Origin: an archaeon | GTDB taxonomy: Archaea; Iainarchaeota; Iainarchaeia; Iainarchaeales; 1-14-0-10-31-34 | DNA length: 32,000 nt | Assembly (NCBI GenBank): GCA_024277355.1 | Contig: JAJRVL010000001.1 | Span: 102,363-134,362, forward strand | Direction of reading: 5' to 3' | In this document: one piece after another, positions 8,105 to 14,662 of the stretch | Layout of the letters: the number at the start of each line of letters is the position of its first letter | How positions within the stretch are numbered: the first letter of the stretch is position 1 | Position numbers and translations under genes: made by a program | Notes under the pieces: generated by a model | Told to the model about the DNA's origin: nothing | What the model saw: the letters and a program-made list of their open reading frames with translations, nothing else | Databases searched by the model: none

Positions 8105-10183
8105 ATGGCAATAAAAGATTTGTATTATGAAATGGAAGATAAATTTTATTCTTTAATTGACAAAACACCATTAACAAAAATAACTGACCCAATAGACAAA
8201 ATTGTCCCTTCATTTATGGTTTTTATTGCAGTAATTTTAATTTTATTTGCATCAGGAATAATTATTTTAATGGGAGAAGGTTTAGGAGAAGAAAAAAATT
8301 TAAGTTTTAAATTAATTGATGAAGACGGACAGGCATTAAGCCAGACAGAAATAATTGTTTCATTTAATGATAAAACAGAAACATTAACTACAAATGCTTT
8401 TGGAAAAACAGGAAAAATTAAAGTACCATTAAATTCAATGGTTTCATTTGAAGTAACTGAAACAGGATTTAAAAAAGAAACTGATTTATTTAAGTTTGCT
8501 GAAGAAGGCGAAAAAACAATTACCTTAAAATCAGGGACAGCAGAACAAGGAAAAACAAGAACAATAAAATTATATGATAAAGAAAACAGAAGTGAATTAA
8601 TTACAGGGAAAACTTATAGAGTTTCTTTTTCCTGCAGTAATTCAAAAGCAACTCCTCCTTCAACAATAACTGTTTCAAATGGAAAAGGAAACGTAATTGA
8701 ACCAGCAGACTGTGGAATATTAACTGCTTCAGTTTCAGGAAACCATTCAGAAAGCATTTCAATGGATTTAGATGAAGAAAGCAATGCAGTTTACTTGGAT
8801 TCATTAATTGAAGTTAATACTTTAATAGTTGAAGTTAAAAATGCAGACAATAAATCATTAGACGGAATAAAAATAAGGATTGATTCATTATATGACAATA
8901 ATGACACTCCTGTTTTTGCAGACAGTTCTTATACTTTTAACGGTCAGGCAGAATTTGAATTAGAATTAGGAACCTACAAAATAACTGCTTTTGATGAAAC
9001 AGGAAATTATTATGAAGCAAAAAAAACAATTAATTTTAATGGAAATGATTTAATTAGAATTGAATTAGAAAGAGCAGTGCCTGAAGGCGGTTACTTAAAA
9101 ATTAAAGTAATAGATAAAGACAATAAAAGCGAGTTAGCTGAAACAAAAGTAAAATTATATTTAGATAACGAAGTATTTGAAGAAAGAACAACTAATACAG
9201 AAGGAATAACAGAATTTTATTTAAAAGACAAAACATTGCTTTATGATGCAGTAATAGATAATGAACAATATATAGTAAAAAAAGTTTCAGGGCTTTCAGT
9301 TGATAATACAGCTGTTACTGTTGAATTAGAAAAATTCACTGGAAATAATGCAGGCACATTAAAGATTAGGACAATAACAATTGACGGAACAAAAGAAAAG
9401 CCTGTAAGAAATGCAAGAATTGCATTATATTCAGTTGAAGAAGATGAAGTAATTCTTACAGGATTAACAGAAAAAATAACTGACATAAATGGTTCAGTTG
9501 AATTTGATAAAATAAAAAACGGAACATACAAAGCTTTTGCATATAAAGGAACTTCTTCAGGATGGAGTGATGCAGTATTATATGACAGAAGAAATTCAGA
9601 TACAACAGGATTAACTGTAACAATGCTTATTCCAAACGGAACACTAAAATTAAATGTTGTGGATGAAGAAAACAATCCAATTCCTTTTACTACAATAACT
9701 TTTTTTGAAGAAGGAAATTCTAAAAAAATAAAAGCAGATAAAACAGACAGCAATGGAAGCATTTTAATTGAAACAAAAGCAGACAAACAGATTTACTTTA
9801 AAGCAGAAAAAGAAAATTTCATGGATTATTACAGCAAAAATTACCCAATATTTGATTCAGCAACAGAAGAAACAATTCAAATGATTCCTGAAAAAAGAAT
9901 GGAAAAACCAGAAATAAAAATTACAGGATTATTCAAAGGAAACGAAGTATTAAATGAAGTTTCTTCACTTGAAGCAGGAGACGAATATAAAGTAAAAATA
10001 CAGTTAATTATTCCTGAAAAGAACTATGAAGAAGCAGGAATTCATTTCAGAGTAGGAAAAGATATTTTCTTAGAAAATGATTTTATTTTTATTAAGACAG
10101 TTAATGCACCAAATGCAATAACAAAAAAATTCACAATGTTTGATGAAACAAACTTAAATGACTCAAAGAAAAGCTCTACTTAA
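8105..10183 (+). CDS. Giant surface protein paralog 2, N-terminal fragment (692 aa) ending at an in-frame TAA inside a conserved domain
   Basis: The N-terminus MAIKDLYYEMEDKFYSLIDKTPLTKITDPIDKIVPSF plus a TM helix is near-identical to giant 3. It carries CarboxypepD_reg-like repeats, e.g. LKIKVIDKDNKSELAETKVKLYLDNEVFEERTTNTEGITEFYLKD. It stops just after the AGIHFRVGKD motif, where paralogs 1 and 3 continue. Confidence 0.85.
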   Translation: MAIKDLYYEMEDKFYSLIDKTPLTKITDPIDKIVPSFMVFIAVILILFASGIIILMGEGLGEEKNLSFKLIDEDGQALSQTEIIVSFNDKTETLTTNAFGKTGKIKVPLNSMVSFEVTETGFKKETDLFKFAEEGEKTITLKSGTAEQGKTRTIKLYDKENRSELITGKTYRVSFSCSNSKATPPSTITVSNGKGNVIEPADCGILTASVSGNHSESISMDLDEESNAVYLDSLIEVNTLIVEVKNADNKSLDGIKIRIDSLYDNNDTPVFADSSYTFNGQAEFELELGTYKITAFDETGNYYEAKKTINFNGNDLIRIELERAVPEGGYLKIKVIDKDNKSELAETKVKLYLDNEVFEERTTNTEGITEFYLKDKTLLYDAVIDNEQYIVKKVSGLSVDNTAVTVELEKFTGNNAGTLKIRTITIDGTKEKPVRNARIALYSVEEDEVILTGLTEKITDINGSVEFDKIKNGTYKAFAYKGTSSGWSDAVLYDRRNSDTTGLTVTMLIPNGTLKLNVVDEENNPIPFTTITFFEEGNSKKIKADKTDSNGSILIETKADKQIYFKAEKENFMDYYSKNYPIFDSATEETIQMIPEKRMEKPEIKITGLFKGNEVLNEVSSLEAGDEYKVKIQLIIPEKNYEEAGIHFRVGKDIFLENDFIFIKTVNAPNAITKKFTMFDETNLNDSKKSST

Positions 10184-10216
10184 GGAGACGCAAAATGGTT
10201 TAATTCAGTCTGGTTT

Positions 10217-13200
10217 TTGCCTGAAAAAGGAGTGCATAATATTGAAATATTAATTAAAGTAAAAGAAAATGCAAGATTAGGACAGGAATTAAAATTAAAA
10301 TACAGAGCTTATGCTGATACAGGTTCAAGAACTGAAAGAAATCCAACAGATGTTTCAGTTACTTCTTCTGAAGAATTAAATGCTGCTGTAAAAGAAAAAA
10401 CTTTTACTGTAGGTGCAAATATTTTTTGTTCAAATGAATTCTGTTTTAGTGCAACAATTTTAGATTTAAAAGAAGACATAATCAAGAAAGTTTCAAATTC
10501 TTATCAAACAAAAATCCTACAGAAATATGAATTACAGTTTGATATATTGAATAATAATAAAACAAAAAAACATTATGATGCAAAAATTCAGTTAAAAAAT
10601 GAAAATGAAATGCTTAATTTTTTAGATTACAGAATAAGCAATGCTGATGCATTAACTAAAAGCGGAACAGCAGACAAAAAAGAATTACCTTGGGTTGAAT
10701 TAGGAGACTTTGATCCAAATAACCATATAACAGGAAAAACTGAATTTATTACTCAGGAAACAAAAACAGGAACAATAGATATTGTAATTGTTTCAAATCA
10801 GGAAATAGTATTTGAAAAAAACATTCAGATTGAAGTTCAGGCACCAAAAAACTTTTTAGTTGAATTTACTCCTGAAAAAATTCCTTCAACTACTTCATCT
10901 TTAATTGAGTTTACAGTATTTGACGAAGAAACAGGAATTGAAATTGAAAATGCTCAAATAAAAGTAATTGACAGGTTTGGAGACTTAATTGCAGGACCTG
11001 AATTAACCGACAGAGAAGGAAAAACAGAAATAATTATTTCAGGACAGGCTCCTGACACAAAATTAATTTTCAGGACAGAAAAACAGGAATACAATATTTC
11101 AGAATTAGAAGTTTTTACTGATAACTCAATAATTGAAATTACTCCTGATAGAATTGGAATTACATTAAACACTAAAACACAGAAGTCAAATGAATTTTCA
11201 TTTAAAATAAAAAACATATTAGAATTTGACTTGGAATTAACTTCACTTAAATTTACTGGAAACTTCAGAGATTTATTAAATAAAAAAGCAATGAATGCAT
11301 GGATGAATACAAATTACGGAAACATAATTATTCCTTCAAAAACAACAAAAGAAGTTAAAGTAAAAGGAATTTTATCTGATTATGCATTAAACAGAGAAGA
11401 AAGAGATATAGTTGAATTAGACTTGGAATTAGAGTTATCTAATGGAGAAGCTTTCTGGACAAAAGAAATTCCAGCAAAAATTTCAATTGGAATAGGCGGA
11501 GAAGTAGATGATCCAAATTGTTTAACTTTAGAACAAAGAACATGGAAAACAGGAACAGAAGGAAGCAAAGTAAAAATAGACTTTGGAATAGAAAATGCAT
11601 GTACAATTAACGGGAATCCAATTGAATTAAAAGACTTAGAAGCAAAAGTTAACTGGAATTCAAATCACATTGGAACTTATACTTTGACTTTTGAAGGAAA
11701 TCCAGTTGAATTAAGGTCAGCTTATTACAGGAAATTAACTGAAGAAATGGAAAACAGAAAATATACTGCAACACTTTCATTTGAACCAAACGGAGGAGTA
11801 AATGGAACAGCAAATGCAGAAATAATTTTAAGGGCAAGAAACCAGTTAGACGGAAAAGATGAATTTATTGAAGATAAAATTTCAACTGAAATAAAAATAA
11901 TTAACTTAAAAGACTGCATTAAGTTTTCTAATACAGACTTAAAAGTCAAAAAAGGAGAAATAACTTCATTTAATGTTTCAACTTTAGGTTGTGGAAGCAA
12001 TGTTTCTTTTACTTTTGATTCAGAATTAAAATTAAACAGTAAATCTTTAACTTTAGGTTCAGAAGATTCAACTGAAATAAAAATTGATTCAAGAGATGCT
12101 TTATCAGGGAGATATTTAATTAAAGCAGAAGCAAAAGGAAATTCTTTAGCAACAAAAACACAAATACAAAATATTTTTGTAACAGTATTTGAAGATTCCT
12201 GTGTTGCATTAAGCAGATATGAATTCGATATTTATGATTCAACTGAAAATGATTTTGATGGATATGACACAGCACAATTATACAATTACTGTGATGAAAA
12301 AGAATTATTAATTAAAGTTAACATGAAAGACTGGAGTTTAGCAATGAGAAATTCATTACTGCCTTCATTAATTGCATTTGGGACAGCAACAATAAGTGAT
12401 AAGAGCAGCGATAAAGCAGATACAACTGATAATTCAAATGGAGAAAAAGTATGGGCTGCAGAAAAAGAAAGCATTCCAACAACAGCATTTATAGGGTTGC
12501 CTTTTATTGGAGAAATTTCTCAGATTTTAAGCGGAGGAAACTTACTAAAAAGTGTTTTTGGTTCAGCTTCTCCATTTGAAATATTTGGAATAACTTTTGT
12601 TGCTTCAACTTTATATAATTACTTTAGTGCAGATGAAATTGGATTTAATGCAATAGCAGATAATATTACAGTCGATGACATTGTATTATTAGAAGGAATA
12701 AAATATACTACAGAAAAAATTGAAGTATTAGATGAAGAAATAGGATTAGTTATTGACGGTCCTTTTTCCTGCTTTGATTCAGTTTCAAATAAAACAATTG
12801 ACTGCTGGGATTTAACTTTTGTAAATGAAAATAAGTTGGTTCAGGAAGACGAATTTACTCCAATAATGAAAATACTTAAAACAAAATCAGCAGAACACTT
12901 CTGGAAAACAGATTACGACGGAGACTATTTCAATGAAAATAAAGGATTCCTTGAAAAAATGTTTAACGGAGCAGACTTAGACTTAAAAAAACCATTACAA
13001 GAAAAAACAAATAAACAAAATGAAATATTACAATACAATAAACTGCAATTTAATTCATTTAATCCAGAAGACACAACTTTAGGAAAACAAAATGCTTTTG
13101 GTTCATGTTCAATTGGAGAATTAACAGGAGAAACAGGAGTAAATGCTTTGCCTAAAATCAAATTAGACTGGAAATGGAATTCAATAACACAAAATTCATG

Positions 13201-14662
13201 CGATGAAAGTAATGAAAATTACATTTACTGTGATGCAACACAATTTTCAATTGAATTACTCAAAAAAATAAAAGAATTAACTGAAAGACTTGAAGCAGAT
13301 GCATTAACTTGTGAAACAAACTGCGTTTATTCAACAATTGAATTGCCTGCATTAATTGAAAACACAGAAAAAACAAGATCTGTTTCAGACAAAGAAAGAT
13401 TACTTGAATTAGTTTCATTTAATTCTTATTTAATTAAAGACGGTTATTCAAAAGACTTCCAGGAAGACTTCCATGATTATGCAGTTAATATTGATTTCTT
13501 TAATGCTCCAACTTCTTATTACAATCCAATAGAAGAAATAGGCCTTGGAGTTTACTTTAAAGACAATTCATTATTTGAATTCAATTACGAAGGCAGTCCT
13601 AACGCACCATTATCAGGACCAGGATTATACAACATTGAAATAGATATTACCTATAATGATTCTTCATGGAAATTATTCAATGGAAATACTCCTAATGCAA
13701 AAATAAAAATTAATTTAAGCAAACAAAGAGCAGCAAAACCAAACTCTCCATTATATTACCTGCCATTTAACGGAGAAATTGGACTTACATCAGATAATGG
13801 AAGAATAGGTTATGGATTAGATTACGAAAATTTAACAGGAAAACCAATAAGAATAAATGACACTACAAGAAGTATTAGAACAGTTCCTCTTTCAGTTGCT
13901 GATCCAGTAGAAGAATTAAGAACAATATATGAAACAGACTTCAAAAAATTAAATTTAGATGAAAGAGCAAAAATAATGCAGTTTGAAAGAACTTCAACCG
14001 GAACAAAATTAACTTATACTCCTTCAACTGCAACTCCAGTAATACTTGAAACAACAAGAAGTTCTGAAACACCAAAAGAAACAGCTTATGCATTTTATTT
14101 AATTACAGTTGACGGTCAGGCACAAAATGTTGGAAGCACAGGAATAACTAATTGGTCAGGAATAGAAGCAAACTGCAAAGACTTTGAAGACAGAAGTTCA
14201 TTAGATTACATGGAAACAGCAGACATGCATGGAATAAGCAGTGAAGCAAGCAATGCACAGATTACTGCAGATAAAGCAACAGCTTATGGATGGATATGGA
14301 ATAATCCAATTAGAACTGGAAAATTCTGGTTAGAAACATTAATTTTTAGTCCACTTGAATCAAAAACACAAATGCATTTAATTTCAGCAGCAAACAATGC
14401 AAAAATTTATACTCCATTAGATTCAGCAGTATTAACAGAGAATTCAAACTTAACTCCTTTTGTTGAATTAAATGGAGTAACAAGCTTGGAAATAACTTCC
14501 CTACAAAAAATACTTGATTTAGTTGAAACAAAAGATGTTTGTGTTGGAGGAATAGGAAATTCAAGTTATAGTTATTTCTTCTGGAATCCAGAAAAAGTTG
14601 ATGACTCAATTAATTCAGTTAAAAACAAGTTAAACGCAGAAGAAAACTGTATTCTGAAATAA
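10217..14662 (+). CDS. Giant surface protein paralog 2, C-terminal fragment (1481 aa from a TTG that is probably not a real start); same frame as 8105-10183
   Basis: It is in the same reading frame as the upstream fragment. The 11 codons between TAA 10181-10183 and 10217 read GDAKWFNSVWF, which aligns to GNAKWTNIIFN (giant 1) and AKAKWTNILWN (giant 3). There is no SD before 10217. The remainder is collinear with giants 1 and 3 to the C-terminus (..NCILK vs ..NCIG). Confidence 0.85.
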   Translation: MPEKGVHNIEILIKVKENARLGQELKLKYRAYADTGSRTERNPTDVSVTSSEELNAAVKEKTFTVGANIFCSNEFCFSATILDLKEDIIKKVSNSYQTKILQKYELQFDILNNNKTKKHYDAKIQLKNENEMLNFLDYRISNADALTKSGTADKKELPWVELGDFDPNNHITGKTEFITQETKTGTIDIVIVSNQEIVFEKNIQIEVQAPKNFLVEFTPEKIPSTTSSLIEFTVFDEETGIEIENAQIKVIDRFGDLIAGPELTDREGKTEIIISGQAPDTKLIFRTEKQEYNISELEVFTDNSIIEITPDRIGITLNTKTQKSNEFSFKIKNILEFDLELTSLKFTGNFRDLLNKKAMNAWMNTNYGNIIIPSKTTKEVKVKGILSDYALNREERDIVELDLELELSNGEAFWTKEIPAKISIGIGGEVDDPNCLTLEQRTWKTGTEGSKVKIDFGIENACTINGNPIELKDLEAKVNWNSNHIGTYTLTFEGNPVELRSAYYRKLTEEMENRKYTATLSFEPNGGVNGTANAEIILRARNQLDGKDEFIEDKISTEIKIINLKDCIKFSNTDLKVKKGEITSFNVSTLGCGSNVSFTFDSELKLNSKSLTLGSEDSTEIKIDSRDALSGRYLIKAEAKGNSLATKTQIQNIFVTVFEDSCVALSRYEFDIYDSTENDFDGYDTAQLYNYCDEKELLIKVNMKDWSLAMRNSLLPSLIAFGTATISDKSSDKADTTDNSNGEKVWAAEKESIPTTAFIGLPFIGEISQILSGGNLLKSVFGSASPFEIFGITFVASTLYNYFSADEIGFNAIADNITVDDIVLLEGIKYTTEKIEVLDEEIGLVIDGPFSCFDSVSNKTIDCWDLTFVNENKLVQEDEFTPIMKILKTKSAEHFWKTDYDGDYFNENKGFLEKMFNGADLDLKKPLQEKTNKQNEILQYNKLQFNSFNPEDTTLGKQNAFGSCSIGELTGETGVNALPKIKLDWKWNSITQNSCDESNENYIYCDATQFSIELLKKIKELTERLEADALTCETNCVYSTIELPALIENTEKTRSVSDKERLLELVSFNSYLIKDGYSKDFQEDFHDYAVNIDFFNAPTSYYNPIEEIGLGVYFKDNSLFEFNYEGSPNAPLSGPGLYNIEIDITYNDSSWKLFNGNTPNAKIKINLSKQRAAKPNSPLYYLPFNGEIGLTSDNGRIGYGLDYENLTGKPIRINDTTRSIRTVPLSVADPVEELRTIYETDFKKLNLDERAKIMQFERTSTGTKLTYTPSTATPVILETTRSSETPKETAYAFYLITVDGQAQNVGSTGITNWSGIEANCKDFEDRSSLDYMETADMHGISSEASNAQITADKATAYGWIWNNPIRTGKFWLETLIFSPLESKTQMHLISAANNAKIYTPLDSAVLTENSNLTPFVELNGVTSLEITSLQKILDLVETKDVCVGGIGNSSYSYFFWNPEKVDDSINSVKNKLNAEENCILK

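Follow-up and report, generated by a model that had tools for sequence, protein, structure and literature searches.

A lone in-frame stop in a giant archaeal surface-protein gene, and its probable place in a genome-wide series of premature stops

The window analysed here, a stretch of 32,000 nucleotides of archaeal DNA with a G+C content of 28.5%, contains three giant genes in tandem, each encoding Ig-like and CarboxypepD_reg-type repeats. The middle gene, giant 2, is interrupted by a single in-frame TAA, and this raises the question of whether the stop is part of the biology of this gene or has another origin. An earlier note on the same DNA had left two options, either a very recent nonsense change (one member of a set of three variant surface proteins being switched off, or a minority allele fixed in the assembly), or a stop codon that is partly read through. 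The window is C10:102363-134362 of the source assembly, referred to as G000, which comprises 1.13 Mb in 11 contigs, is 96% complete with 28.5% GC, and is the representative record of its species. The names attached to the orthologs point to the DPANN archaea (Diapherotrites/Iainarchaeota). The features are listed in Table 1.

Giant 2 and its interruption

The TAA at 10181-10183 ends the ORF 8105-10183 (692 aa), after which the same frame remains open as far as 14662. From 8105 to 14662 this frame holds two stops only, the TAA at 10181 and the terminal TAA, so that the downstream 4.4 kb is indeed open; the other two frames contain 215 and 254 stops over the same interval. A BLASTP search with the read-through product (P0001, 2,185 aa) gave single collinear alignments of residues 1-1273 to giant 1 and of residues 1-1426 to giant 3, both spanning residue 693, thus homology crosses the stop as had been proposed. 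The same holds for the 33 nt between the stop and the TTG at 10217, which contain the conserved AKW.N motif: in an alignment of 15 orthologs and paralogs (A1), K118 and W119 are invariant and N121 is nearly so. A Shine-Dalgarno (SD) motif of the GGAG/GGTG type is absent within 25 nt upstream of this TTG, in agreement with the earlier note. The public gene call (P0009, 1,476 aa) begins the downstream piece at an internal GTG. Translation restarting at either the TTG at 10217 or the GTG at 10232 would generate a protein that lacks both an anchor and a signal, since only one strongly hydrophobic segment (residues 28-62, above 1.6 in a Kyte-Doolittle scan) was found in the read-through product, and none downstream of the stop.

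The stop was also described as splitting a conserved domain in its middle, and this is supported by structure prediction. Residues 580-880 were modelled with AlphaFold (mean pLDDT 78.7), and the stop, at model residue 114, falls in a loop that connects strands 93-97 and 119-125 within a single beta-sandwich of approximately model residues 24-190. The only Foldseek matches of this domain were generic Ig-like sandwiches of the pilin, cohesin and integrin kinds. A truncated product would, as anticipated, keep the N-terminal anchor (approximately residues 35-57) and the CarboxypepD_reg repeats, because the Pfam matches of the upstream piece (CarboxypepD_reg, Big_1 and SpaA, residues 422-557) precede the stop as well.

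Table 1. Coordinates of the features discussed. Giants 1 to 3 and their parts are numbered in the window, and all other features on the contigs of G000 or of the genome named; the position of a listed stop is the first base of its codon.
Feature	Position	Strand	Basis or remark
Giant 1, intact paralog, 2,443 aa	757..8088	+	Stop 16 nt before giant 2 start
Giant 2, one gene, 2,185-residue membrane-anchored surface protein, single interruption	8105..14662	+	Open frame, collinear paralogs, intact orthologs
Upstream piece, 692 codons + TAA: anchor, Ig-like/CarboxypepD_reg-type repeats	8105..10183	+	Pfam
N-terminal membrane anchor, ~residues 35-57	8207..8275	+	Kyte-Doolittle scan
Beta-sandwich domain cut by the stop	9911..10411	+	AlphaFold model m263ef53d1f8f, residues 24-190
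In-frame TAA, differing by one base from the sense codons of all orthologs	10181..10183	+	Ortholog alignment
33 nt, non-coding in the ORF track, encoding the conserved GDAKWFNSVWF block	10184..10216	+	Translation, alignment
Downstream piece, 1,481 codons from TTG, without own anchor or signal	10217..14662	+	ORF, hydrophobicity scan
Giant 3, intact paralog, 2,368 aa	14746..21852	+	Own 83-nt spacer with TATA-like box and SD
TctA stop, TAA	C2:524366	+	Pfam domain across stop
PdxS stop, TAA	C2:184470	+	Pfam domain across stop
Ferritin stop, TAA	C2:58085	-	Pfam domain across stop
PfkB stop, TAA	C2:26042	-	Pfam domain across stop
NrdD stop, TAA	C2:410824	-	Pfam domain across stop
M17 peptidase stop, TGA	C6:4244	+	Pfam domain across stop
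Deoxyhypusine synthase (DHS) stop, TGA	C7:25669	+	Pfam domain across stop
Aminotransferase stop, TAA	C9:98793	-	Pfam domain across stop
RtcA stop, TAA	C11:58238	+	Pfam domain across stop
Unnamed protein stop, TAA	C2:402941	-	Conserved domain or intact orthologs
Unnamed protein stop, TAA	C4:20708	+	Conserved domain or intact orthologs
NiFe-hydrogenase-like protein stop, TAA	C9:102786	+	Conserved domain or intact orthologs
GluRS (gltX), TAA in catalytic domain	within C3:37701-38615	-	Only GluRS gene
CARDB surface protein (L018), 1,232 residues, split 878 + 353 aa	C2:88805-92500	-	TAA inside CARDB repeat
Top6B, frameshift split: HATPase piece 168 aa + transducer piece 411 aa	C2:418986-420700	+	L084, A8 run
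Rad50, frameshift split 224 + 588 aa	C11:87606-89995	-	L087, A-rich run
Decarboxylase-DHS frame, G000	C7:24586-25917	+	L036
Decarboxylase-DHS frame, G002	C41:3737-5062		
HhH-GPD locus compared, G000	C2:32466-32870		
HhH-GPD locus compared, G002	C60:13904-14305		
HhH-GPD locus compared, G003	C4:34314-34703		
HhH-GPD locus compared, G004	C5:33791-34210		

Comparison with sibling genomes indicated that the stop is private to G000. Within the genus, each giant 2 ortholog is encoded by one continuous frame (2,207-2,278 aa), the orthologs found in databases (2,121-2,326 aa) are uninterrupted too, and the aligned codon is CAA in L004, L007, L008 and L015, AAA in L005, and GAA in L006. The earlier suggestion that one point change would restore a sense codon is therefore correct, since TAA is a single base away from each of these codons. 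In the ortholog tree, the near neighbours all carry Gln, and the G000 branch is long with 0.28 substitutions per site. Depending on whether the predecessor codon was CAA, which the nearest relatives have, or a lineage-specific GAA, the change would thus be C>T or G>T. We also searched for a conspecific strain, but exact-pattern and protein-guided scans of metagenome contigs gave only a relative with 72% identity, and a search of 5.8 billion proteins found nothing above 70% except the downstream ORF of the window itself.

Decay of the downstream part had been named as the outcome that would speak for a plain pseudogene. The protein identity to the nearest ortholog is approximately 68-71%, at which synonymous sites would be saturated, and for this reason dN/dS was set aside and constraint was measured as the deviation at sites that are otherwise invariant among orthologs. 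In G000 this deviation was 9.3% for the part before the stop and 4.9% for the part after it, and the same score for intact orthologs ranged from 3.3 to 11.5%. The 1,492 downstream codons carry no further lesion and their constraint is not relaxed, which argues against plain decay. These codons offer 877 single substitutions that would create a stop, and none of these has occurred, therefore neutral divergence is limited to approximately 1% or less (95%).

Across the order, 40 of 41 genomes have tandem giants of approximately 2,200-2,700 aa each, located side by side. Frameshifts disrupt one of the giant paralogs in each of two relatives, into 311 + 936 + 1,062 aa in G029 (L016, C3:20000-33000) and into 1,344 + 1,212 aa in G015 (L017, C13:143000-156000), and this may reflect either real decay or assembly errors in those records.

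Premature stops across the genome record

The whole G000 genome was scanned for pairs of coding-like ORFs in the same frame that are separated by one stop and have no nearby start, and this yielded 18 candidates. Besides giant 2, at least 14 in-frame stops were located inside conserved domains, so the series amounts to at least 15 stops, together with two frameshifts, and it is scattered over all larger contigs of G000. In nine housekeeping genes (TctA to RtcA in Table 1) one Pfam domain bridges the stop, and with the exception of the aminotransferase, intact orthologs bridge it as well. The splits at L029, L033 and L037 are also bridged by intact orthologs. Same-genus orthologs were uninterrupted in every case tested. 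The CARDB surface protein, for example, is intact in five out of five same-genus orthologs (1,207-1,258 aa), and these have GAA at the position of the stop codon. An intact second copy in G000 was found for none of the nine housekeeping genes, and only the aminotransferase has paralogs, which are distant (~27% identity). Single-copy genes that were hit include GluRS, NrdD, DHS and PdxS. Five frameshift candidates were tested as well, and three of them turned out to be ordinary neighbouring genes.

As a control, the same filtered scan was applied to 380 kb of a sibling genome (G003). This flagged two pairs, neither of which was a real split, while at the rate found in G000 (14 verified per 1,128 kb) 4.7 would have been expected. 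Reciprocal tblastn of the G000 and G003 junctions was discarded, since conserved DNA aligns in non-coding frames too. The excess of stops is a property of the G000 record. Giant 2 accounts for approximately 0.7% of the codons of the genome, and one stop in it among at least 15 genome-wide is unremarkable.

Two of the genes concerned showed further peculiarities. S-adenosylmethionine decarboxylase and DHS domains share one open frame of 444-460 aa in G000 and G002, which appears to be a fusion protein covering two steps in the supply of hypusine, and in G003 and G004 only a stand-alone, more distant DHS was present. The NrdD frames of G002 (C29), G004 (C40) and G005 (C16) are 1,023-1,432 aa long and match in two to three pieces, as expected if they carry inteins. 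The NrdD gene of G000 has no such intein-like breaks, unlike that of these three siblings.

Among the stops with a resolved ancestral codon, the base change is conspicuously uniform. GAA was changed to TAA in PdxS, ferritin, CARDB, TctA, PfkB and NrdD, GGA to TGA in DHS and the M17 peptidase, and TCA to TAA in RtcA, thus all nine sites with an unambiguous ancestral codon are G:C>T:A changes. Based on the codon usage of G000, the expected share of this class among nonsense changes is 0.29 with uniform rates (P = 1.4e-5), and 0.45 when a transition and AT bias is included (P = 7e-4). At L037 the siblings have GAC, which is compatible with the same class, and at L033 the lone sibling has CTA, so that the ancestral codon is ambiguous. 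With 0.165 G:C>T:A nonsense targets per codon, 15 events would correspond to roughly 3e-4 changes per G:C site. G>T/C>A changes are the published signature of 8-oxoG lesions that arise before or during library preparation, where they have been described as variants that occur at low frequency in deeply sequenced data (PMC3616734, PMC5144678). So clean a spectrum speaks for one specific type of lesion rather than for unspecific noise in the consensus.

Origin of the stops

We consider it probable that the TAA in giant 2 is an unselected point lesion, or a consensus error from a damaged template, that belongs to the genome-wide series. The lesion class occurs throughout the genome, essential single-copy genes are hit, and the stops are absent from relatives. 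Growth is impossible without the only GluRS, NrdD, DHS and Top6B, therefore the stops are not ordinary fixed mutations. Oxidised guanines (8-oxoguanine-type lesions) may have remained unrepaired and been copied into the sequenced material or into the consensus, possibly with a contribution of cytosine deamination, and a low-input or amplified template, or damaged DNA, would provide a suitable setting. The living organism would then make full-length giant 2, and the TAA is most likely not a real biological feature of this gene. This is in line with that option of the earlier note which comprised a recent nonsense change, a minority allele or an error, since the stop is one base from a sense codon, private, and followed by 4.4 kb of undecayed sequence. 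Three points weigh on the other side. Oxidation at the library stage normally leaves low-frequency variants, and would affect the consensus only with few template molecules or low coverage. The stop in giant 2 may be a C>T change, which would place it formally outside the G>T series, as the nearest orthologs have CAA, and the lack of a second HhH-GPD glycosylase in G000, discussed below, leaves room for a real mutator background.

The stops might be real, fresh mutations resulting from defective 8-oxoG repair or from heavy oxidative stress, in which case giant 2 would truly be knocked out and reduced to an anchored stub of 692 residues that ends in half a domain. The G:C>T:A spectrum agrees equally well with a mutator deficient in GO repair and with an artefact, an undecayed downstream part is what a recent event would leave, and a single HhH-GPD glycosylase occurs in G000, compared with two each in G002, G003 and G004. 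The second glycosylase of these siblings is approximately 240 aa long and remains below all NCBIfam cut-offs, and tblastn did not find it in G000. However, the missing enzyme is Nth- or 3-methyladenine-like, below every curated cut-off, and not an identified Ogg, and G001 and G005 also show a single HhH-GPD copy. A search for the AGOG family gave no match in G000, and the control genomes were equally without a match. The loss of the only GluRS, NrdD, DHS and Top6B would be incompatible with growth, and we regard fresh mutation as unlikely. An on/off switch specific to giant 2, or its ordinary decay into a pseudogene as one member of a variant surface-protein trio, seems very unlikely to us, even though the giants form a tandem array of surface-protein paralogs and one giant is broken by frameshifts in the relatives G029 and G015. 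Giant 2 carries a single lesion in 2,185 codons under unrelaxed constraint, the trio is retained in 40 of the 41 genomes of the order, and the genome-wide series accounts for the stop without special pleading. There is no repeat tract at the stop site, the search for a template-like copy of the stop region gave only a weak paralog match, and the G000 genome contains no reverse transcriptase (RVT_1), which led us to reject a phase-variable gene or a DGR target as candidates. The proposed deliberate switch-off of one surface protein is thus not borne out, as there is no switch element and the same type of stop occurs in at least 14 other genes.

The frames are perfectly open and conserved past each stop, and prokaryotic genes are reported to contain in-frame stops that seem to be under purifying selection (PMC7918605). 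This would fit leaky or programmed read-through, in which TAA and TGA are partly decoded and the interrupted proteins, giant 2 among them, are still made at full length. Stops used for programmed read-through should be shared by relatives, but none of the stops is present in the siblings, and sense codons were found at the giant 2 site and at the other 11 alignable sites. TAA and TGA serve as normal terminators, ending 67% (471/699) and 25% of the long ORFs in G000, respectively, and TAA is followed by G in 9% of the long ORFs that end with TAA. Among the 37 tRNAs predicted by ARAGORN, with or without introns allowed, none has the anticodon UUA, CUA or UCA. The RNA fold downstream of the giant 2 stop is no more stable than that of shuffled sequences (z = 0.15), and there is no common sequence context among 16 stop sites. 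The replaced residues Glu, Gly and Ser differ, which excludes a single recoding, and tolerance of stops would admit all nonsense changes and not only G:C>T:A. Recoding of TAA as Glu or of TGA as Gly, an idea prompted by the prevalence of GAA and GGA among the replaced codons, was rejected in view of the Ser (TCA) case, the use of both codons as terminators, and their absence at these sites in siblings. The partial read-through suggested before is therefore not supported by a suppressor tRNA, a recoding structure or a conserved stop, and we judge it highly improbable. That this archaeon lives with at least 15 premature TAA and TGA codons, its only GluRS and NrdD genes included, by means of leaky near-cognate read-through, with giant 2 made at a lower level as a mix of the 692-residue stub and the full-length protein, appears to be a highly improbable variant as well.

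Taken as probable lesions of the template or errors of the consensus, the stops have consequences for annotation. Giant 2 should be annotated as one gene of 2,185 codons with a suspect base, and split genes, 'pseudogenes' and 'missing functions' of G000 need checking against siblings before they are interpreted. If the stops were real after all, this would be a striking case of nonsense codons tolerated by an archaeon.

Comparison with known systems

The SPEARE proteins of Nanohaloarchaeota are giant membrane-anchored surface proteins of DPANN archaea. The giants described here resemble them in architecture, since they exceed 2,000 residues, are anchored at the N-terminus, contain Ig-like beta-sandwich domains in series and occur as tandem paralogs, likewise in a genome of very small size. 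The giants differ in forming a trio that is conserved across an order of a different phylum. Genes with internal stops in draft or metagenome-assembled genomes are usually annotated as pseudogenes. The G000 series is like such interrupted genes, with a lone stop in an intact frame, found in one record and in many genes, including essential ones, but it is unlike generic cases in its clean spectrum, with nine out of nine G:C>T:A changes. Suspected read-through genes (PMC7918605) and true recoding (Sec, Pyl, and code 25 with UGA=Gly) also have a conserved frame that continues past the stop; the stops in G000 are, in contrast, not conserved, neither a dedicated tRNA nor a signal accompanies them, the genome uses TAA as its main terminator, and the replaced residues vary. 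Library artefacts caused by 8-oxoguanine are low-frequency, and for the G000 stops to reach the consensus few template molecules or a low depth would be needed, but it is with these artefacts that the series shares its class of base change (Costello et al. 2013; Arbeithuber et al. 2016).
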